A stretch of 48,380 bases of DNA from a candidate division WOR-3 bacterium (GTDB taxonomy: Bacteria; Hydrothermota; Hydrothermia; B15-G9; WFZT01). Where the stretch lies: positions 1 through 48,380 of the forward strand of contig JALUEE010000027.1 in NCBI GenBank assembly GCA_027053075.1. The letters run 5' to 3'. The notes beneath the pieces are model-generated. The model was not told the origin of the DNA. It did no database searches and saw only the letters and a program-made list of their open reading frames with translations. This document shows, in pieces, positions 30,462 to 48,380 of the stretch; positions within the stretch are counted from its first letter, which is position 1; each line of letters begins with the position of its first letter. A program made the position numbers and the translations under genes.

Positions 30462-30666
30462 CGTTTTACTTTATCCACCTTTAAGGTGGGTTAACCCATA
30501 AGGTAGCAGATTTAGCCTTTACGCTAATTTTGAGGCGGCAATTTGCAATGTGAGTGTCGGGTCTGTTGAAATGGAGTTGTGCTAATCCACAATCTTGGTA
30601 GAAAGAGTGTATATGTATAAATTTCAAACTGCTTCGAAAAAGCAGCACACAGGGAGAAAAAATTAC

Positions 30667-32733
30667 ATGCCCTTAAAGGCCGATAAACCAATTAAAACCC
30701 CAAAGGAAGATGTACTTGGTAGAGCAGAGGTTGCGGTGTCATTTGCTAAGCAACTTTTGTCACTTGATATATCTGAAGGTGTCGTTGTAGGTGTCCTTGG
30801 CCCTTGGGGATCTGGAAAGACATCCTTCGTTAACTTGGTACGGGGATATTTGGAAAATCTCCGTGTTCCTGTGCTTGATTTCAATCCATGGATGTTTAGT
30901 GGCACTGAACAGCTTATAGATTCATTCTTCATTGAACTTTCTGCACAATTGAAACTCAATTCTACCCTTCATGAAATCGGAAAGGCTTTAGAAAGTTACG
31001 GAGAGATTTTTTCTGGGTTGGGCTCGTTACCTTTTGTAGGTCCATTGATTGAAGGAAGTTCAAAAGTTTCAAAGACTTTAGCCAAGATTCTCCAGCGTAG
31101 AGAGGGGGGCATTACCAGTTCTCGAGTCAAAGTTGAGAAAGCTTTGGCAACTCTTGATAAACCGATTGTTGTAATCATTGATGACATTGACAGATTAACT
31201 GTGTCAGAGATTCAGGATATCTTCAAGCTTGTTCGGTTGACCGCGAATTTTCCTAATGTTATTTATATTTTGGCTTTCGATCGTCTTCGAGTAGAGCAAG
31301 CTCTTACTGAGCAAGGTCTCCCTGGTCGTGATTACCTTGAAAAGATACTCCAGATCAGTGTTGACCTCCCCGCAATTCCAAACCAAATACTGAACAGGCA
31401 TATTTCACAAGCTATTAACGAAGCGATTGACGGAATTAAAAATCCTGGTCCATTTCAAAAAGAGCGCTGGCCAGATGTTTTCATGGAAATTATTCGTCCC
31501 TTATTCAAAAACATTCGAGATGTGCGGCGTTATGCACTTGCTGTCCATGGTACAGTACTAAACTTAAACGGCCAAGTTGCCCTTGTTGATGTGTTAGCGT
31601 TGGAGGCTATTCGAGTTTTCCTACCTGATGTTTTCTATCAGATACATGAGTCTATCGACGGACTCACTGAGACCTCTGAGATCACTTTAGATACTTACGA
31701 AAATCAGTCACCCCTGAAGGAGCAGATTGACCAATTGATTGAAACGGCTGGTAATAAAGCTAATGTTGTTCGAGCACTTATAACGCGGATTTTCCCTGCT
31801 GCCGAACGACATATAGGTGGTCTTCGTTACGGAGATGAGTGGAAAAAACGATGGCTTCAAGAACGACGCGTTGCTCATGAGCACATCCTTAGATTTTATT
31901 TAGAACGTCTTCCAAGTAAAGGGTTACAAGCGTTTGTGGACGCTGAGCGGGCTTTCGAGAAAATGGCAAACCTCGAAGAGTTCAACCATTATCTTCGTTC
32001 ACTTGACCCTTCACGGCTGGAAGATGTTATAGCTTCCTTGGAAGTGTTTGAAGATAGATTTCGTGCTGAGCATGTGGTACCAGGGGTAGTTGTGCTACTC
32101 AATATATTACCTGAAATACCCGAGAGACCATTGGGGATGTTTGATTTAGGGCCCGAATTAATTGTGAGCCGTGTGGTTTACCGGTTAATTCGCTCTTTAC
32201 AGGACCACAGTAGAGTAGAGGAAGCTGTTAGAAATATTATTCGCCATCTCAATACCCTTTACGCAAAGGAATTATTGATCACGATGGTCGGCTATCAAGA
32301 AGGGGCAGGACATAAACTTGTGTCAAAGAAAGCAGCAGAGAACTTCGAAAAAGAATGGAGAGATGAGGTACGTTCTGCCTCTATTAGCACTTTAATAAAG
32401 GAAAAAGGTCTCCTCAGAATTTTATTACTTGTGAAACGCAGGGCAGGCCCAGAAGAACCTCCACTGGATATCCCTGATTCACCCTTTATGACTCTTGCTC
32501 TTCTACGATCCGCTCAGGTTGAGGTTTACAGTCAATCTATGGGGAGTCGATTTGTGCGTCCTTCCGTTCGCCTTGCATGGGATGAATTGGTTGAATTGTA
32601 TGGAAGCGAAGATGTTCTTCGTGATAGAATCGAGAAGCTGAAGTCAACACATCCAGAAGGTGCAGATGAACTGCTCTCTTTGGTGGATAAGTATCTCGCA
32701 GGTTGGCGCCCCAGCGATTCTGGTAGAAATTAG
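30667..32733 (+). CDS. KAP-family P-loop NTPase
   Basis: DVLGR, Walker A GPWGSGKTS, FNPWMF, Walker B VIIDDIDRL and YLEKILQ. ATG 30667 with a GGAG SD is preferred. Confidence 0.9.
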   Translation: MPLKADKPIKTPKEDVLGRAEVAVSFAKQLLSLDISEGVVVGVLGPWGSGKTSFVNLVRGYLENLRVPVLDFNPWMFSGTEQLIDSFFIELSAQLKLNSTLHEIGKALESYGEIFSGLGSLPFVGPLIEGSSKVSKTLAKILQRREGGITSSRVKVEKALATLDKPIVVIIDDIDRLTVSEIQDIFKLVRLTANFPNVIYILAFDRLRVEQALTEQGLPGRDYLEKILQISVDLPAIPNQILNRHISQAINEAIDGIKNPGPFQKERWPDVFMEIIRPLFKNIRDVRRYALAVHGTVLNLNGQVALVDVLALEAIRVFLPDVFYQIHESIDGLTETSEITLDTYENQSPLKEQIDQLIETAGNKANVVRALITRIFPAAERHIGGLRYGDEWKKRWLQERRVAHEHILRFYLERLPSKGLQAFVDAERAFEKMANLEEFNHYLRSLDPSRLEDVIASLEVFEDRFRAEHVVPGVVVLLNILPEIPERPLGMFDLGPELIVSRVVYRLIRSLQDHSRVEEAVRNIIRHLNTLYAKELLITMVGYQEGAGHKLVSKKAAENFEKEWRDEVRSASISTLIKEKGLLRILLLVKRRAGPEEPPLDIPDSPFMTLALLRSAQVEVYSQSMGSRFVRPSVRLAWDELVELYGSEDVLRDRIEKLKSTHPEGADELLSLVDKYLAGWRPSDSGRN

Positions 32734-39498: not shown

Positions 39499-42400
39499 AT
39501 GATGAATTTTCTGATACCGTTATTACTACTCCAATTTTATAGTGGGCATCTTCAGGATGTCCAACTTCTTGCGTCAGATTCCCTATGGAGTCTGGACTAT
39601 GCTCTGACGCAGGTAAAAAGTGATTATAAAACCACACCTGCACTACTTGAATTGAACCAGTATTTTGAGCTTTTTCTCGCCAATCGTGCAACCACTATTC
39701 CTGCCCGTGAGGTAACATTCAAAAGCCTGAATGCGCTCACCAGGAGTATGGATAAGAATACCGAGGAACTCGCTCTATTTAACATCATTGTTGAGAAACT
39801 CAAAAGTGGACGCTACCCTGATAAAGAGATCAAAACTTTTAAAGAAAATTTTGCCGGCAGCAGGCTTTATCCATATCTAAAACTTCAGGAAGCACTTTTT
39901 AACGTGAGAAAGGGAGATACACTCTTAGCAATCCAGGCGTTGAAAGACCTACTTGAGTATGGTGGAGATGTCTACCTTATAAAATCTGCACTTCTCTGGA
40001 TCGGAAAACTCTCAATCCTCACTGGAAACTACAAGGATGGGAACTATTATCTCAACAAGTTTACAAAACTCTTTCCACACGACCCGGTTGCAAAAGACCT
40101 CAACCTTATCCTGCTTGTCCTTTCGCTGAAGAAGAGGGACTTCGAGACAGCTTCCAGCATCATCAAAGAAAACAATTTCAAGGAATCTGATAAGCCACTG
40201 GTTTTACTAATCTCAGGATACATGGATATCCTGCAGGGAAAATTTGCTCTGGCGAGAAAGGAATTACAGGCCTCAGATTCCCTGCCGGCCGATGCCATAC
40301 CCCTTAAAACCTATCTTCTTGGATTCCTGGACTACAAAGCCGGAAACACCTCATCGGCCATCTCGCGCATGGATTCGGTAATTCAGAGTGGTAAAAAGGC
40401 CCTCATTCCTTATGCTAAGTTCATCAAAATCCTCGCGTTCAAAAAATCAGCAAAGCACAAAAAATACGTCAATTCCCTCGAAGATTTTATCAATAGTTAC
40501 CCGGACTCAAAACTCACTGCTTATGCCGCTTATCTACTCGGGCTTGAATATTTTAAGAAAAATGAGCTTGATAAGGCCCTTCAGTATTTTGAGAAGGCCC
40601 GTGACCTGGCGCAGGAACTTCCCATAAAGCCGCAGGTTTATTTCATGCTTGGTGAGATTTCTTTTCTCAAAAAAGATTACAAGGACGCCATAAACTATTT
40701 TTCGGTGGCTCAGGATGGGCTTAATGACAACAACTACAAAAGCTATGTCTCACTTCGCATAATCATGTCGCTTTACAACCTCAACAAGCTGGATGATCTC
40801 GTCTCCTACTCTGAGGAGGTGCTAAAGACCGCGCCGGATTCGGTAAAAGAGTGGATTCATTTCTACAGGGCAAAGACCTACATGAAAATGAAAATGTACC
40901 AGTACACTGAAGACGAGCTTGTCCATATTATTCGCTCGAGGGCGTTTGGAGATGTGCTCTACTATGCATATTTTGAGCGAGGACTACTTCACTACAAACT
41001 AAAGCACTACAGGACAGCTGAAAAATATTTCTACCAGGTGATTTCCAACTACTCGGATACCTCAAAAATTTACGAGCTTTCTTTTCTTTACATAGGCGAC
41101 TGCAAATTTAACAGACACCAGTATGGGCTCGCTGCAAGATACTACGAGAAATTCCTTGAAATGCATCCTCAGGACAATCTTTATTACAGTGCACTATGGC
41201 AGCTCGGCCTCACATACTATCGAATGAGGAAGTATGACAGGGCGCTTGATGTGTTCAATAAAGTCTATTCTTCCAATATAAAGAAATCTTTGAAAGATTC
41301 TGCACTTTTCATGATGGCAGAATGCTACAAGAGTCTTGAGGATTACGAGAAAGCTGCAGAGATTTACACGCAGATTTACAAAGACCCATCCTCTCACTTC
41401 CGTGCACTTGCCCTCTACAAACTTGGTGATATGTATTACAACCAGGAAATGTACGAGAACGCGTACGAAACTTATAGAAAGATTATTGAGGAATTTCCAT
41501 CAAGTGACCTTGTTGACGACGCCATCGAAGGTTTTCTCCAGAGTGCAGGTAAGATTGGAAAAGATCAGGAAGCATACGCCTTTTTTGATTCTCTAATCTA
41601 CAATTCGCCACCTGTAATTGCCGCCACCCTTATTTTTAAGAAAGGAGAGTACCAGTTTAACCAAGGCTGGTACGAAGAGGCAATCAAGACGTTTCAGGAG
41701 ATTGTAAATAGATACCCGAGCCAGAAGCTGCTTGACAAGGCCTACTTCTGGATTGGAATGGCCTACGTGAGGCTCGATAGCTGCGACAGTGCAATAGCTA
41801 ACTTTGAAAAGGCCGCTAAAATCCCTGAATCTTACTACTACATAGCTGAGTGCTATTTCAAAAAACAGGACTTTGTCAACGCTCGTGATAATATGCTCCT
41901 GTTCCTGAAAAATGCACACAACCAGACTATAAAATACCCTGAGGCGTACAGAGTGCTTGCATACTCATACATAAATCTTGGTGACACCACGGCTGCCGAT
42001 TCCATGATGCAGCAGCTCCTTATGAAGTATCCGGATAATCCCGCTGCCGACGAAGCAAGACTGTACCTCGCATCAAGGCTTGCACAGAGGGCTGAATATG
42101 ATTCTGCAATGGCTTTGATTAAAGTGATAAAGAAGAACCGTTCAGATGAGATTGCAGCAAAAGCCAGCCTCCTTCTTGCAGATATTTACCGCGACATGGG
42201 CGAGATCGAAGAGGCAATTATTGAATACATAACCACTTACAGGATTTATGAGAAGCTTTACCCGGAAGTCGCAGAGCAGGCCCTTGTGAGGGCTGGAGAG
42301 CTTTACGAGCAGCAAAATCGCCTTGAGGAGGCACTTACAGTCTATAGAAGGGCAATAAGGAAATTCCCAAATGCTCCCGACCGGGAAGAGCTCGAAAAGA

Positions 42401-42522
42401 AGGCAAAAGAGATAGAGCAGAAACTAATAGAAGAGAAGCTTAAAAAGGCCCCTCAGCCATCTCCGACAGCACCGGAATCCGGCAAAATTAAACCACCTCA
42501 AAAAGAGGAGGGCCAGCAATGA
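39499..42522 (+). CDS. large exported tetratricopeptide-repeat protein
   Basis: Hydrophobic N-terminus and many TPRs with YP.S/FP.S turns (CpoB/BamD-like). Confidence 0.85.
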   Translation: MMNFLIPLLLLQFYSGHLQDVQLLASDSLWSLDYALTQVKSDYKTTPALLELNQYFELFLANRATTIPAREVTFKSLNALTRSMDKNTEELALFNIIVEKLKSGRYPDKEIKTFKENFAGSRLYPYLKLQEALFNVRKGDTLLAIQALKDLLEYGGDVYLIKSALLWIGKLSILTGNYKDGNYYLNKFTKLFPHDPVAKDLNLILLVLSLKKRDFETASSIIKENNFKESDKPLVLLISGYMDILQGKFALARKELQASDSLPADAIPLKTYLLGFLDYKAGNTSSAISRMDSVIQSGKKALIPYAKFIKILAFKKSAKHKKYVNSLEDFINSYPDSKLTAYAAYLLGLEYFKKNELDKALQYFEKARDLAQELPIKPQVYFMLGEISFLKKDYKDAINYFSVAQDGLNDNNYKSYVSLRIIMSLYNLNKLDDLVSYSEEVLKTAPDSVKEWIHFYRAKTYMKMKMYQYTEDELVHIIRSRAFGDVLYYAYFERGLLHYKLKHYRTAEKYFYQVISNYSDTSKIYELSFLYIGDCKFNRHQYGLAARYYEKFLEMHPQDNLYYSALWQLGLTYYRMRKYDRALDVFNKVYSSNIKKSLKDSALFMMAECYKSLEDYEKAAEIYTQIYKDPSSHFRALALYKLGDMYYNQEMYENAYETYRKIIEEFPSSDLVDDAIEGFLQSAGKIGKDQEAYAFFDSLIYNSPPVIAATLIFKKGEYQFNQGWYEEAIKTFQEIVNRYPSQKLLDKAYFWIGMAYVRLDSCDSAIANFEKAAKIPESYYYIAECYFKKQDFVNARDNMLLFLKNAHNQTIKYPEAYRVLAYSYINLGDTTAADSMMQQLLMKYPDNPAADEARLYLASRLAQRAEYDSAMALIKVIKKNRSDEIAAKASLLLADIYRDMGEIEEAIIEYITTYRIYEKLYPEVAEQALVRAGELYEQQNRLEEALTVYRRAIRKFPNAPDREELEKKAKEIEQKLIEEKLKKAPQPSPTAPESGKIKPPQKEEGQQ

Positions 42523-44012
42523 AAAGATTATTCCTGTTACTGCTTCTTGGATTGCTCTCGGCACAGGAAAATCCAGAGCAAACCCCAGAACTCCCCCAGC
42601 TCAAAGTTGAAGAATTTACTATTGTTGGCATAGATACCTTCAGGGCGCAGAGACCGATCGTGGATGTGACACCGGGATTTAGAAGCTATATTCCTATTGG
42701 AGATCCCGACCTCGTGGGATTTGTCAGTGGTCAGTTCCCTGTCAAAACTTTTGAAATCAAAATTGAAGGCCATAAAGAGAGAAAATCATTTTTTAGGTCA
42801 TCTTTGGGAATGGGCTATGGGAATTATGTGCATCTCAGAATGCTCGGTGGTAAGCTCGGCAAGGGCTCAAGCATCCTCGGGAACTTGAAGATCACAGGTG
42901 CAATCGGTGGAAATCACGGGATAAATACCATAGACGGTTTTGTTTCTTTAAATGGGAAAAACGGCATTCTCTGGACTCTCACAGCATCTATATTCTCTAA
43001 AATGGAGAAAGCATCCAGGGTAGATACGATTCTGTCACATAAACTCTTCTCACCATCAATACACGGAAATTTAAGCTACCTCCCGGAAAATAACGGCTTT
43101 TTCACACTTGCCAGCCTTGATCAGGAATTTGTGGTAAACGATACCGGAAAATCTCATAACTTCTCGTGGACAAAATTTAATGCGTCAGTGGGTTATATTC
43201 TTGATAAGCCACTAAAAATTTCTGCTGACCTGAGTCTCGAAAAGCTCAAGTCAACAGGTGTTACATCGTTCGGTCTTGGTATGGGCACTATGCTCGGGAA
43301 GATAAAATCCTTGCTGAGTGCAGGATTTGCCGGCTCTTCAGAAGGTAAGTCCACACCTGTATTTGCTGCATCCCTCGTATTCCCCTTCGCTTCAAATCTA
43401 AAATTCGGCTTAAAGGTTTCAAAAACGCTTATGACCGCCGATTTTGGTTTATTTGAGGCAAACTCAGCTCTACTCGGAGATGTCTCAAAACCGCTGGAAG
43501 AGCAGACATCTATCACTTTATCAACCCATTACACAACCGGTACATTTGCCCTGCAGTTTGGTGCTGGCTACAGAGAATACACGTGGGCACCTGTTCTTGC
43601 TAAAGATTCAAGCAGATTCTGGGTACTCACCTCCGATACGACTTCAATCAGGGGAGCGATTCTTGAATTTTCACTCTACGATTATCGGCATCTCTCAATA
43701 AACGGGAGCTACTTCCTCACATCTCAGGAATTCCCGCGCGATACACTCTTTCTCAGAGGTCTCCTGGGGATCAGCTACACTTTGCCTGAGGGGCGGATCA
43801 TTCCGGGGGTTAGATTCGGCCTGAATCTTGCGAATTTCAACAGGCGCACAGTGGCTGAGGAAAGTTTCGAGATTTCAAAGAGCTTCACGAGGCACGTGGG
43901 TGCATTTATTGAAATTATAAATCCATTTAAAGAAGGGTTTGAGATTTTCGCACCAGATTATAAAATAAACAACGGGTTTTCACTTGCCCTTGGTTTAACC
44001 ATGAAATTTTAA
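42519..44012 (+). CDS. putative outer-membrane beta-barrel protein with TonB-box-like N-terminus
   Basis: Signal peptide, EEFTIVG, alternating amphipathic strands and a C-terminal ...LGLTMKF beta-signal. Confidence 0.6.
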   Translation: MKRLFLLLLLGLLSAQENPEQTPELPQLKVEEFTIVGIDTFRAQRPIVDVTPGFRSYIPIGDPDLVGFVSGQFPVKTFEIKIEGHKERKSFFRSSLGMGYGNYVHLRMLGGKLGKGSSILGNLKITGAIGGNHGINTIDGFVSLNGKNGILWTLTASIFSKMEKASRVDTILSHKLFSPSIHGNLSYLPENNGFFTLASLDQEFVVNDTGKSHNFSWTKFNASVGYILDKPLKISADLSLEKLKSTGVTSFGLGMGTMLGKIKSLLSAGFAGSSEGKSTPVFAASLVFPFASNLKFGLKVSKTLMTADFGLFEANSALLGDVSKPLEEQTSITLSTHYTTGTFALQFGAGYREYTWAPVLAKDSSRFWVLTSDTTSIRGAILEFSLYDYRHLSINGSYFLTSQEFPRDTLFLRGLLGISYTLPEGRIIPGVRFGLNLANFNRRTVAEESFEISKSFTRHVGAFIEIINPFKEGFEIFAPDYKINNGFSLALGLTMKF

Positions 44013-44027
44013 AGGAGGTCTTTTCCT

Positions 44028-44654
44028 ATGCAGTTCACATTACTTCAAATACTCGCAAAGGGTGGGATCATTGTATGGTTGATTCTTCTTTTATCTGTGA
44101 TCGGGCTTGCCATTGTCTTTGAAAGGCTTATGGTGCTGAAAAAGGCGAGAACCAATACCCGTATCTTCATGCTGGAGATCAAAAATATCGTATTGAAAGG
44201 GAACTTCGAGGAAGCACTAAGGCGAGCCCGTGAGTCAACCGGTCCCATCGCAGCCATTGTCTATGCAGGATTAAAGAGCTTTGGTGGCTCAAGGGAGGAA
44301 ATAAGAAGCTCTATCTCGGATGCAGCTGATATCGAGATTTACAGACTCGAGAAGCATCTTGATGGACTTGCCACCATTGCAAGCACTGCCCCACTTCTTG
44401 GATTTCTCGGAACGGTAACGGGAATGATCAATGCCTTTATGAAGATTCAGGCACTTGGAGGTGCTGTGGATGCCTCGGTTCTGGCCGGTGGTATCTGGGA
44501 AGCCCTCGTAACAACGGCAGTGGGCCTGACTGTCGGAATCATCTTTTACTATCTTTATAACTACATGGTTGGAAAGGTCCGCGAGATCGTTTATGAGATG
44601 CAGACCAGCTCAATTGAGCTACTTGACCTCTTGAGTGAGGTGAGCCAGTCATGA
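44028..44654 (+). CDS. exbB: MotA/TolQ/ExbB proton channel protein
   Basis: APLLGFLGTVTGMI and GIWEALVTTAVGL. Confidence 0.9.
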   Translation: MQFTLLQILAKGGIIVWLILLLSVIGLAIVFERLMVLKKARTNTRIFMLEIKNIVLKGNFEEALRRARESTGPIAAIVYAGLKSFGGSREEIRSSISDAADIEIYRLEKHLDGLATIASTAPLLGFLGTVTGMINAFMKIQALGGAVDASVLAGGIWEALVTTAVGLTVGIIFYYLYNYMVGKVREIVYEMQTSSIELLDLLSEVSQS

Positions 44655-45055
44655 AATTTGAGATGAAGCACAAGCCTATGTCCGTCTTCAACTTCATCTC
44701 CCTTGCCGACATTGTTCTGCTCCTGCTGATTTACTTTTTGCTCACCTCTACCTATGTGGTGCAAAAAGGCATTCGGGTGAGGCTGCCAAAATCTGTAACG
44801 AGTGAAAAAACCACAGTAAACAAGCAGATTACCATTACCGTTACAAAGAGCGGCGCCATTTTTCTCAACAATAAGCCCGTTTTACTAAAAGATCTTTCAC
44901 CAAAAATAAAGCAGCTTCTTGAGATTAATCCCAAGCAGATCATTGTTTTGCGGGCGGACGCCTCACTCCCCCTCGAGCAAGCTGTAAAAGTTCTGGACGA
45001 GGCAAAAAAAGCCGGCGGGGAGAAACTCTTGATCGCAACTTATAAAGAAGAATGA
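44651..45055 (+). CDS. exbD: ExbD/TolR biopolymer transporter
   Basis: SLADIVLLLLIYFLL with the conserved Asp, VRLP and LRAD. Confidence 0.9.
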   Translation: MKFEMKHKPMSVFNFISLADIVLLLLIYFLLTSTYVVQKGIRVRLPKSVTSEKTTVNKQITITVTKSGAIFLNNKPVLLKDLSPKIKQLLEINPKQIIVLRADASLPLEQAVKVLDEAKKAGGEKLLIATYKEE

Positions 45056-45660
45056 AGCTCAATAAGCCCATTTTATATTCAATCGCCATTCACGCTGTGA
45101 TTCTCCTGATCTTTGCATTCATAAAGATTAGCTCGCGACCGAAACCACCTGAGGAAAAATGGGTGGAGGTACAGACACTCCCCACAACAGTGATAAGAAA
45201 ACCCGCTCCAAAACCTGCCCTCGAGAAAACGAAAGCGGGGAAGAAGCCTCTGAAAACCGAGGAAAAGACTCCTGAGGAGAAACTGGTTGAGGAACGTATA
45301 CGCCAGGAGATGCTGGCAAAGAAAGAGATTGAAAAGAAAGAAAAGGAAATAGCCCAGCAGCTTTTTGGGAACAAAAGTGTGAATGTAAAGATTGAGGGGA
45401 TAATCAGTCAGAGAAGGCTAATTAATTACGTCCTGCCCCCACGGTTGCCACTCCTTTCAGATGTTACCATCAAAGTCAGAGTAACAGTTGACCCTCAAGG
45501 GTATGTGAAAAGGGTGGAATTTGTGAAGAAAGGGGATCCAAATGCCGAACGGAGCATAAGAAGTATACTCTATCAGTGGCGATTCGAGCCCCTCAAGAAA
45601 GGCATCAAACCCCACCTCGAAGAAGGCATAATCACATTCCACTTTGTAGTAGGCCCATAG
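45052..45660 (+). CDS. tonB: TonB-family energy transducer
   Basis: N-terminal TM with SxxxH (SIAIH), Pro/Lys-rich linker and TonB_C (VDPQG...WRFEP). Confidence 0.75.
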   Translation: MKLNKPILYSIAIHAVILLIFAFIKISSRPKPPEEKWVEVQTLPTTVIRKPAPKPALEKTKAGKKPLKTEEKTPEEKLVEERIRQEMLAKKEIEKKEKEIAQQLFGNKSVNVKIEGIISQRRLINYVLPPRLPLLSDVTIKVRVTVDPQGYVKRVEFVKKGDPNAERSIRSILYQWRFEPLKKGIKPHLEEGIITFHFVVGP

Positions 45661-45670
45661 AGAAGTTTTG

Positions 45671-45705: not shown

Positions 45706-48380
45706 ATGCAGGAACCTTTGAAACTGGATGTTCATATATGGCAGGAAGAGGGGGAATATTTTTTAAAGGTTCAGGGTGATTCACCCACAAAATTCTCATT
45801 TCCTGAGCCCTACTGGAGCGAATACAAAAGGCATTACAAAGTTGACCCCCAGAAAGCACACCTCTTCGGTAATAGAATATTTGAAGTCACTTTTTCAAAT
45901 GAATCAAGACGAAAGCTTTTTGAAAAACTATTCCAGGAAGCAACAAACAATAAAAAACACCTCGTAATCAACATCTCCTCAAATATCCACGAAATTCAGG
46001 CAATCCCGTGGGAACTCCTGAATCCAGAGCCCAAACACAACTCATTTCTTGCAACAGGAGGAAATGTCTCCATCATCAGGTCAGTTCCCGGAGCCGCATT
46101 TTTATTTAATCCACCTGAAAAGCCACCGATAAAGATGCTCATAATCCTCTCCATGCCCATTGAAACATACAGGGAGAGGCCACTTGACCCATTAAGAGAG
46201 ATAGAGATAATTCGGGAGTCGGTCTCTGATTACCTCTCGTCCGGCCTTCTCGAAATAGATATTGAGGTTGAGGCCAACCGTGCTCGCATAAAGGAAAAAC
46301 TTGCCCGCGGTGGTTATCACATCATTCATTACATTGGGCACGGTGCAAAAGGAAGAAAACTTCTATTAGAAAACCAGAAAGATTTTACCCGAACCGACGA
46401 AATTGATGGAGAGGACTTTGCAGTTCTTTTCCAGCAGGTGAATGCTGGACTTGTGGTTTTAAATGCCTGTGAAACTGCTGCTCCCGACTTCGGGGCATTT
46501 TCATCTGCTTCATACTTTCTACACAGCCGCGGTGTCCCCATCGTAGTTGCACATCAGACCACTGTGAGTGATGAAGATGCCATTGAGACTACAAAGAAAC
46601 TTTACGAAGACATCTTCAGGCTCAGTTTCCCTGCCGAAGCACTGGATATGGCAAGAATAAAACTTCAGTCAGGTGGTGGTGAATGGTGGAATCCCGTTTT
46701 GTATCTTGGCATAAATCACAATATTTTTGAAAACGCGCTAAAGGAAAAGAGGGAGAAGAAAAACAGGGTATTTATCTCCCTTGGAATCTATTCACCGGGT
46801 AAACCCTTTGTCTATAGGTTTGAGCCTGTCAGGAAGGTGGCACATCACCTTGAAAATGCGAATATTGTGGTTCTACACGGTATTGGAGGCTCCGGGAAAA
46901 GCTCTCTTGCCGATTATACTGCCCATCTATTAAGGTCCCAATACGAGCACATTATCGGTGTTAAATTGCCAGATGAGAAAATAAACTCCCCCCATGAGCT
47001 CCTGCTCTATATCATAGATAGATTTATTGAGGGTGGTGTTGGACCTATTAGAAGATTGATGGAATTGAGGGAAGATACAGAGCAATTTAAAGAAAAGTTT
47101 TCCCACCTTGCCCCTATGAGCCTTTTTAAAAGATTTTTTGAAATTCTCGATTATCCATCAATACTGCTAATTTTGGACGATTTTGAAGGGTTACAGGATA
47201 GAGACTCAGGAGTTATTACTGTTACCTCCTGGAAAAACTTCCTTAAAAGTGTCAATAGCCATGAAATTCCCCTTAAGGTAATAATCACCACAAGACTGTC
47301 TCCTGCATTTACGGAAAGAGAACCACTTGAACCTGTGGTGCATATCAAAACTTTCAGCCTTGAAGAATTTAAGTATTTCCTCAATGAGTTGGTATCCGCT
47401 GGTGAATCGGATAAGGCAGAGAAATTACTGGGTAAATTTCCTGACCTTGTAAAATATGACTTCCATCCCCTTTATCTCAAACTTTTTGAGGATTATGACA
47501 GTGAGAGGGAGATTTTCTCGCATCCGGAGATGAAAAAGGTCCTTGAGTTCTATGAATATTACTTCAAAAATTTCCAAGAAATCCAGGGACTCCTCATACT
47601 TAAGCCACGAAGAGCTTTCCCGACATTTCTTAGCCGGGATTTCCTTGAAATCCTCATACCATTAAAATCGGGTATTCTGGATTTACTCCAGAATAAACTT
47701 AAAATTCTCTACCCGGAAGGAGATTTTTTCAGGGTCTATGGAGTAATAATCAGTGCATTGAGAAATAGAATTCCCTTTCCACCAGAGCAAAGAAAAGAAA
47801 TTGTGAAAAAGATAATGAACTTTGAACCCCGCGGAACAGGTGATACCATCCAATGCATACAGATTCTCGAGGAAGAGAAGAAATCCGAGGAAATTACTAA
47901 AAAGCTTGTTGCACTGTACGACAAACTTGCAAGAGATTTACAGGATCGAGGGAATTATCCGCTTGCACGAGGATTTATCAACAGGGCAATAGAACTTGCT
48001 GGAAAAGTTTATAACAAAAATGATGAAATATTTGGGATACTCTACAACAATTTAGCATCGATACTACAGGATATGGGGGAACTTGAGGAGGCTAAAAAAT
48101 ATACATTGAAGGCTATTAAAATAGATGAGAAGGCATTTGGCCCAGATCATCCCACTTTAGCTACTGATTACAACAATTTAGCACAAATACTACAGGATAT
48201 GGGGGAACTTGAGGAGGCTAAAAAATATACATTGAAGGCTATTGAGATTGATAAGAAGGCATTTGGCCCAGATCATCCCACTTTAGCTACTGATTACAAC
48301 AATTTAGCACAAATACTACAGGATATGGGGGAACTTGAGGAGGCTAAAAAATATACATTGAAGGCTATTGAGATTGATAA
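45706..48380 (+). CDS. CHAT (caspase-like) protease - STAND/NB-ARC-like NTPase - TPR protein (partial, runs off the window)
   Basis: Translated by hand, the frame is open for at least 891 codons: AIPWELL, HYIGHG (His 46339), VVLNACET (Cys 46468), Walker A GIGGSGKS (46879), Walker B LLILDD, IITTR, then 42-aa TPRs. Confidence 0.9.
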   Translation, partial: MQEPLKLDVHIWQEEGEYFLKVQGDSPTKFSFPEPYWSEYKRHYKVDPQKAHLFGNRIFEVTFSNESRRKLFEKLFQEATNNKKHLVINISSNIHEIQAIPWELLNPEPKHNSFLATGGNVSIIRSVPGAAFLFNPPEKPPIKMLIILSMPIETYRERPLDPLREIEIIRESVSDYLSSGLLEIDIEVEANRARIKEKLARGGYHIIHYIGHGAKGRKLLLENQKDFTRTDEIDGEDFAVLFQQVNAGLVVLNACETAAPDFGAFSSASYFLHSRGVPIVVAHQTTVSDEDAIETTKKLYEDIFRLSFPAEALDMARIKLQSGGGEWWNPVLYLGINHNIFENALKEKREKKNRVFISLGIYSPGKPFVYRFEPVRKVAHHLENANIVVLHGIGGSGKSSLADYTAHLLRSQYEHIIGVKLPDEKINSPHELLLYIIDRFIEGGVGPIRRLMELREDTEQFKEKFSHLAPMSLFKRFFEILDYPSILLILDDFEGLQDRDSGVITVTSWKNFLKSVNSHEIPLKVIITTRLSPAFTEREPLEPVVHIKTFSLEEFKYFLNELVSAGESDKAEKLLGKFPDLVKYDFHPLYLKLFEDYDSEREIFSHPEMKKVLEFYEYYFKNFQEIQGLLILKPRRAFPTFLSRDFLEILIPLKSGILDLLQNKLKILYPEGDFFRVYGVIISALRNRIPFPPEQRKEIVKKIMNFEPRGTGDTIQCIQILEEEKKSEEITKKLVALYDKLARDLQDRGNYPLARGFINRAIELAGKVYNKNDEIFGILYNNLASILQDMGELEEAKKYTLKAIKIDEKAFGPDHPTLATDYNNLAQILQDMGELEEAKKYTLKAIEIDKKAFGPDHPTLATDYNNLAQILQDMGELEEAKKYTLKAIEID
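48043..48380 (+). repeat. 126-bp near-identical tandem repeats encoding 42-aa TPR units
   Basis: Units start at 48043, 48169 and 48295 (YNNLAQILQDMGELEEAKKYTLKAIEIDKKAFGPDHPTLATD). Confidence 0.95.

Follow-up and report, generated by a model that had tools for sequence, protein, structure and literature searches.

What does a caspase-like protease act upon when it is fused to an NLR-like switch and its gene runs off the end of the assembled DNA? The question is posed by a stretch of 48,380 nucleotides (nt) from a candidate division WOR-3 bacterium (hereafter the window), at whose 3′ end (45706..48380, plus strand) an initial annotation had recognised a caspase/HetF-like (CHAT) protease fused to a STAND NTPase and a tetratricopeptide-repeat (TPR) sensor, with a substrate that might be encoded beyond the window. 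To our knowledge, no substrate is known for many fused CHAT-STAND-TPR proteins, so that their function is hard to test. Here we report that, past the window, the gene faces a pair of genes for a KAP NTPase and a helical protein named X, that the same pair recurs beside related sensors, and that the three probably constitute one functional unit. The sensor architecture is already known from caspase-fused Avs/NLR proteins, and the sensor-protease taken alone is of a known kind; the linked KAP-X pair is what is new.

The frame is open from ATG 45706 to the last base of the window, 891 codons that translate into 891 residues without a stop, just as first read. No stop occurs there because the window, which is positions 1-48380 of contig C27 (53,907 nt, its numbering continuing that of the window, in an assembly of 2.44 Mb and 114 contigs), ends at a 100-N scaffold gap within an array of near-identical 42-aa TPR units. 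Extending the contig downstream, across a second 100-N gap at C27:49024-49123, closes the CHAT-STAND-TPR gene with a TAA at C27:50034-50036 and brings in the partner genes. Both gaps fall in register within the 126-nt repeat, and the three sequenced segments total 4128 nt or 1376 codons, a minimum for the length of the sensor. A pseudogene or frameshift was considered and rejected, since re-translation revealed neither frameshift nor stop, and the sequence on either side of each gap keeps the register, with segment lengths that add up to a multiple of three. This is the sole CHAT gene found in the host assembly; strain variants across it are present in three further public DNA runs, each from a different study, and no RNA run was found listed as holding it.

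On the opposite strand lie the genes for X (281 aa, C27:51524-52369, minus) and the KAP NTPase (453 aa, C27:52366-53727, minus; Pfam PF07693, 91.4 bits against a cut-off of 20), coupled by an ATGA overlap. The partner foreseen beyond the window has thus taken the form of this pair; no gasdermin or other known substrate was found there, and both proteins are candidate substrates. That no substrate is evident upstream holds as well, the genes on that side encoding ExbB, ExbD and a TonB-like protein; an upstream substrate was rejected because these genes are common to congeners that carry other genes beside them. The KAP protein has intact Walker motifs, a DDLDRL motif invariant in 12 rows, and no helix of membrane strength, and is soluble; its core matches the PDC-S20, QatA and PifA models. 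X has a predicted all-helical solenoid fold (pLDDT 86.8, from a seven-row alignment). Across 12 rows, with 16-46% identity to this copy, it shows no invariant residue except Met1 and no membrane-strength hydrophobic segment (maximum 19-residue hydropathy 1.65), and it was unmatched in Pfam, NCBIfam, the ESM Atlas and Foldseek searches of the PDB at E 0.001, with a single PADLOC row at E 0.045 in one scan and none in another. VIA structure comparison returned generic solenoids (best Z 8.3), which does not establish a new fold. X looks like a binding protein rather than an enzyme. The idea that X is a frameshifted KAP tail was rejected, the two being separate open reading frames (ORFs), with ATGA-type or short spacing, at all loci.

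When the neighbours of 79 loci were clustered, the same KAP was found facing the sensor gene, with an X homologue between them, in records titled Nitrospinae and Thermodesulfobacteriota. A three-row X profile recovered one metagenome locus and three further genomes among 251, and a seven-row profile detected X in 8 of 13 genomes selected solely for holding the sensor subfamily (5 of 10 when the genomes that fed the profile are set aside) and in neither of two congeners with fragmentary sensor contigs. KAP lies directly upstream of X on the same strand at all 13 X loci (two of them near-identical), and a TPR-plus-tail gene abuts the pair at each of the 12 with context, the thirteenth being cut by a contig end; the arrangement is convergent at 11 and co-oriented at one (G004). 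The stop codons at the ten other convergent loci overlap by 4-68 nt (eight loci) or stand 3 and 29 nt apart; on C27 the sensor and X are separated by 1487 nt with dispersed palindromic repeats and a 63-codon ORF, a spacer that is likely a later insertion. CHAT-STAND, TPR, X and KAP share one contig or scaffold at four loci (this one, L026, L034 and L101), in five genomes with a split sensor the halves match each other best by repeat type, and the tail in G003 matches that of the full-length protein P0002. Convergent partners of this sort are overlooked when searches assume operons and when contigs break in the repeat array.

Hosts, by record title, comprise Nitrospinae, Thermodesulfobacteriota, Syntrophobacter, Desulfobacteraceae, Nitrospirae, Melioribacteraceae, Desulfurobacterium and Campylobacterales, which on those titles places the module in six phyla besides the host's own; genome bins may be misassigned. 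X was found in 4 of the 272 host-phylum genomes and in 2 of the 301 from a second phylum, always at these loci, and the CHAT-STAND part in 4 of the 272 and, spanning both domains, in 3 of the 301 (with 2 further CHAT-only matches). The close KAP clade, at 354-526 bits, is confined to the same 4 of 272 genomes as X, which had themselves fed the profile, with six other genomes scoring at most 118. X and KAP stood beside 3 of 158 scanned loci, all of the close subfamily, and neither was seen at any of the 81 CHAT loci that are more distant and have 2.5 kb or more of downstream sequence. There was no match to X in 72,556 plasmid records, viral contigs held three distant KAPs only, and a word-based homologue search with the seven-row X profile returned two proteins only. 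The dependence is one-way: where the contig allowed a look, the pair was never seen without the TPR-plus-tail gene, and sensors often lack the pair, a pattern that would suit an effector in need of an activator.

Trees were drawn for the 10 loci whose genome carries all three genes, G003 and G004 being left out for want of a sensor start and one row combining L101, a metagenome contig, with L193, a near-identical copy in a genome. The sensor and KAP trees share their sole starred split and the same sister pair, and Mantel correlations between distance matrices gave rho of 0.66, 0.60 and 0.56 (p at most 0.0002). The host groups with three Desulfobacterota-type rows, and G023, of the same class as the host, lies on the opposite side of the split; a topology that holds these two together is rejected by the sensor data (p-AU 0.023) and narrowly escapes rejection for KAP (p-AU 0.063), for a constraint group named after the trees had been seen and with G023 a long, compositionally odd branch. 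Congruent sensor and KAP trees fit transfer as a unit, and alone are no proof of joint function.

The sensor itself has the effector-STAND-repeat anatomy first ascribed to it, with CHAT, STAND and TPR parts recognised in one chain both by Pfam and in an AlphaFold2 model built on 67 sequences (pLDDT 94.4, pTM 0.90), and with every motif named at the outset in place (HYIGHG, LNACET, Walker A and B, IITTR and the TPRs). The CHAT domain (residues 69-323, 45910..46674, plus) matches PF12770 at E 1e-18 and 68.1 bits against a cut-off of 24, with the dyad residues His212 (codon 46339-46341, HYIGHG) and Cys255 (codon 46468-46470, LNACET), both on the plus strand, invariant in 18 of 18 aligned rows. 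Among 46 aligned close relatives (the best 43 of 150 matches listed, this protein and two close genome relatives) His212 is kept in 44 and Cys255 in 45. VIA structure comparison relates the model to SAVED-CHAT (Z 22.4, rmsd 2.2, 193 aligned), Csx29 (Z 19.4) and separase (Z 18.0), and Foldseek matches were headed by the archaeal STAND-TPR structure 6mfv and included kinesin-light-chain TPRs, SAVED-CHAT and Avs3. The profile match and a His-Cys dyad in a modelled caspase-like fold place the protein in the CHAT family, and proteolysis is predicted.

The STAND module (residues about 352-723, 46759..47874, plus), delimited by Pfam, conservation, Foldseek and VIA, bears on the plus strand a Walker A motif, GIGGSGKS (residues 392-399, 46879-46902), a Walker B motif, LLILDDFE (487-494, 47164-47187), a sensor-1 IITTR (526-530, 47281-47295) and a His-Pro at the GxP-like position (47464-47469), followed by a helical and winged-helix-like region; these features place it among the STAND NTPases of the NB-ARC/AP-ATPase type. 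The NB-ARC profile passes narrowly at residues 374-572 (26 bits against 23.5), and VIA aligns about residues 352-720 to the wheat resistosome (Z 19.1), CED-4 (Z 18.1) and WRR4A, over a Z range of 17.9-19.1. In the 46-row alignment Lys398 of Walker A is kept in 41, Asp491 in 40 and Arg530 in 34, several misses being fragments (3 fragment rows) and two rows matching the CHAT part only. A search with residues 1-730 gave 9505 cluster representatives at E 0.001, 41 of them at 1e-30, and no solved structure by sequence. In PADLOC 2.0.0 of 2023 the sensor drew three weak rows, SAVED_CHAT being marginal (E 0.003), and no Avs model at E 0.01; no NCBIfam family reached its cut-off.

TPRs begin at about residue 730 (Pfam TPR_12, 110 bits; TPR_10, 98 bits). 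The first 2.7 of at least 11 kinesin-light-chain-type units of 126 nt or 42 aa lie at 48043..48380 (plus), the rest of the array runs across the two gaps to C27:49628 (plus), and a helical non-repeat tail of about 150 aa extends from about C27:49590 (plus) to the stop. The 11 sequenced units, a lower bound since the gaps hide the true repeat number, are 86.5-100% identical in DNA (mean 93.5%), as is known of near-identical TPR arrays in bacterial NLRs (10.1101/2020.01.06.895854). Four codons hold 64% of the non-synonymous pairwise differences among units (pN 0.38, against 0.021 elsewhere), namely two just before the YNNL motif (T/I/P and D/R/H/L), +5 (S/Q/L) and +9 (D/A), all in the first helix of the unit; two other public runs have Thr at +5 of the first unit, on loose contig ends. 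Three of the four correspond to positions that we take to line the TPR ligand groove. Positive selection on the repeats was considered and is not supported, pS at the four codons, which were chosen post hoc, being 0.39 and pN/pS about 1. Among relatives the repeat type is exchanged, with units of 40, 42, 45, 46 or 47 residues and neighbours up to 100% identical. Of 170 proteins, a profile of the post-TPR tail picks out 11 at E below 1e-7; all 11 belong to the close subfamily, and 5 are near training rows.

How might the three proteins act together? As a whole, a chain in which invader sensing leads the CHAT protease to cut X, and the KAP NTPase so freed brings arrest or death, is put forward tentatively, as a possibility built on analogy. 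By the precedent of Avs and NLR proteins, an invader ligand bound by the TPR array would elicit nucleotide exchange and STAND oligomerisation, and oligomerisation would gather the CHAT domains and activate the protease; ligand-driven oligomerisation is described for Avs (10.64898/2026.08.25.746987; PMC13581612). X, judging from gene order, translational coupling and its want of catalytic-looking residues, may bind and restrain the KAP NTPase, and on the model of Csx30, CalpT and other effectors under protease control it may be the protease substrate, much as the caspase-like domain fused to Avs12 cleaves the neighbouring EACC1 on sensing a phage tail connector (10.1101/2025.11.14.688446). The freed NTPase could then cause abortive infection in the manner of PifA, a KAP protein without membrane helices that does so (PMC13001434). 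In wider terms, we incline slightly towards a horizontally spread and so far undescribed form of immunity, kept as a cassette of head-on, overlapping genes in up to seven phyla: an NLR-like caspase whose TPR sensor is rapidly reshuffled would gate or guard KAP, a signalling ATPase of another class, via X as a new helical protein family.

Several observations weigh against this. No conserved cleavage motif is evident in X, and, in contrast to most protease-substrate operons, transcription of the pair comes from the opposite side. At 8 loci the sensor start and tail are on different contigs or the start is missing (five joined by best repeat match, G003 joined via P0002, G258 unjoined, and G004 without a CHAT-STAND start). 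Of the eight sensor loci complete on one contig or scaffold, four are without the pair (L025, L031, L032 and L103). Three of the genomes concerned could be searched and none yielded X at another site, so that the protease is able to persist in its absence; at L025 the convergent slot is occupied by another pair, also defence-like. The X tree lacks resolution, a single phylum supplies three of the four rows on one side of the split shared by sensor and KAP, and congruent trees arise from co-transfer alone as well. Two independent defence systems sharing a mobile cassette, one a CHAT-NLR that needs no partner and cuts host or phage proteins and the other formed by KAP and X, would accommodate the convergent orientation, the pairless half of the complete loci, the substitute pair at L025 and, through joint transfer, the congruent trees, and effector-independent caspase-like defence proteases do exist (10.1101/2025.11.14.688446). 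We nevertheless consider such independence unlikely, given that X and its KAP clade were not found away from a TPR-plus-tail gene, whether at the 12 loci with context or in two phylum-wide searches, and that the linkage survives where identity has fallen to 25-46%, where TPR types (40-47-aa units) have been exchanged and, in G004, where one inversion has taken place.

Joint function could also run the other way, with KAP-X being watched or itself sensing, an invader attacking or activating it, the TPRs or the tail reading its change, and CHAT killing by cutting host proteins. KAP ATPases can be phage-triggered themselves (PMC13001434), and the post-TPR tail is subfamily-specific and is retained through changes of TPR type, as might befit a surface that binds a partner; but variable, swappable repeats suit the sensing of a foreign ligand better than the watching of a fixed self protein, and helical C-terminal tails are found also on subfamily members at pairless loci, and we regard this guard-like arrangement as quite unlikely. 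Improbable, too, in our estimate is that X is a latent death effector which proteolysis sets loose, as it does gasdermin, EACC1 or Pepco, with KAP serving X as chaperone or assembly factor: a small, non-enzymatic protein encoded next to a defence protease is often a latent effector (10.1101/2025.11.14.688446) and X is non-enzymatic by conservation, yet its hydropathy profile lacks a segment of membrane-helix strength and its fold is that of a generic solenoid. A non-defence signalling protease, coupled to an ATPase-adaptor pair for stress or developmental control as in HetF-like regulated proteolysis, is most improbable, for while CHAT proteases include HetF (a weak NCBIfam match here, 22.7 bits against 1200) and KAP ATPases have signalling roles (PMC13001434), the strain-variable presence (4 of 272 genomes), different sites in congeners, near-identical variable repeats and cross-phylum transfer form the pattern of a conflict gene.

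The genomic setting is that of an accessory insert, whose left junction (45659..45670) lies just after the tonB-like stop and is marked by a synteny break and by loose contig ends. A sister genome (G004), with ExbD and TonB-like proteins 99% identical, is syntenic to window position 45670, and about 400 nt further on it has the gene that here opens contig C66; contigs from other runs have tonB followed by other DNA at 45659, or the sensor gene preceded by other DNA at 45670. Three congeners (G001, G002 and G003) carry other genes after tonB, and in a fourth (G005) the contig ends there. The insert is at least 8.2 kb long, and its far end is a six-copy IS630-like element (C27:53781-53907 and C40:1227 onward) with two reading frames and six end-sequence copies, several at contig ends. 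Together with patchy spread, defence-type neighbours and published analogues, the accessory insert supports a defence role of the sensor indirectly.

Within the spacer, about 1.26 kb (C27:50036-51300; L001:5037-6301) contain G+C-rich palindromic repeats with many similar genome-wide copies, REP-like in character, and the 63-aa ORF after X (C27:51299-51487, minus), with no family match and one copy in the genome, presumably resembles small antitoxin-like proteins. Upstream, the cluster at window 39499-45660 encodes a TPR protein of 1007 aa that looks secreted, a protein of 497 aa, unmatched in Pfam, that reads as an outer-membrane barrel, and ExbB, ExbD and the TonB-like protein; the genes that follow the 3′ end of the cluster differ among congeners, which marks that end as a hotspot. 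Elsewhere in the window, a further ORF (30586-32730, plus) weakly matches the partner KAP profile (E 1e-10). Among related loci, L025:4884-12467 has two tandem sensor-subfamily copies flanking its convergent pair (299 and 418 aa), the 418-aa protein matching PADLOC PD-Lambda-5_A (E 2e-21) and ParB-like Atlas clusters. P0002 (952 aa) joins a G002-type start to a G003-type tail through one or two TPR units and is either a collapsed assembly or a natural short sensor, and the sensor copy at L029 (G263:C237) is in three pieces with internal stops, through decay or assembly error, its near-identical copy at L101 being intact. Distant CHAT-STAND-TPR genes at L046:12002-12672 and 15 other loci (L044-L091), many in Methanosarcinaceae, have a conserved neighbour of about 155 aa (16 of 79 loci), with no Pfam, PADLOC or NCBIfam match in the copies scanned; at 10 loci a zinc-ribbon-like ORF of 63-75 aa comes before it, and the arrangement is a further candidate for a substrate module.

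The co-inherited KAP-X pair offers a direct candidate and a three-gene construct for testing. Should the link be functional, STAND and KAP, two classes of immune ATPase, would be joined in one pathway, X would represent a new effector or inhibitor family among the few protease-gated defence modules, and the sensor would be a bacterial case of the fungal-style variable-repeat type with a screenable ligand. The three-gene module was not found described in the literature searched, most subscription papers lying outside that search. In the portions of the sources available, KAP is mentioned solely as replacing the STAND domain in other systems (PMC8195603; PMC10907252); the word is absent from the main text of 10.1101/2025.11.14.688446, whose supplements may bear on this, and from that of PMC13581612, as is CHAT, with CHAT, KAP, caspase and Peptidase_C14 also absent from seven supplementary files of the latter.

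Among known systems, the all-in-one CHAT-NB-ARC-TPR bacterial NLRs share the domain order and near-identical TPR units; they come mainly from multicellular lineages, with no KAP partner mentioned in the available part of the report (10.1101/2020.01.06.895854), whereas the subfamily described here has its own tail and pair. KrAvs12-EACC1 and the Avs2/4 trypsin-MBL proteins likewise combine an N-terminal protease, a STAND module and a TPR sensor with a linked, co-evolving neighbour (10.1101/2025.11.14.688446; 10.64898/2026.08.25.746987); compared with KrAvs12-EACC1, the neighbours here are KAP and a helical X, which do not figure among the protease-linked effectors listed in 10.1101/2025.11.14.688446 and are convergent rather than co-oriented, and the sensor is a near-identical repeat array. 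Csx29 of Craspase and SAVED-CHAT share the CHAT fold and dyad and, on the proposed chain, sensor-gated activation and a dedicated substrate, but the present sensor has no CRISPR effector or SAVED domain, its switch being the fused STAND module; its order is CHAT-STAND-TPR, not the TPR-CHAT of Craspase, and no Cas7-11 or Csx30 is encoded in C27:39499-53907. Nor is it a bacterial gasdermin system, as no gasdermin profile matched among the neighbours checked (ExbB, ExbD, the TonB-like protein, the 63-aa ORF, X and KAP) and X is all-helical. Resemblance to Qat stops at 82.5 bits for QatA against a cut-off of 600, with only X and the 63-aa ORF following the KAP gene and no qatBCD or other Qat genes seen. 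PifA, QatA and PDC-S20 share with the partner the KAP fold and intact Walker motifs, and PifA also the absence of membrane helices, but the matches cover the NTPase core only, and the KAP NTPase described here is coupled to X and to a STAND protease.

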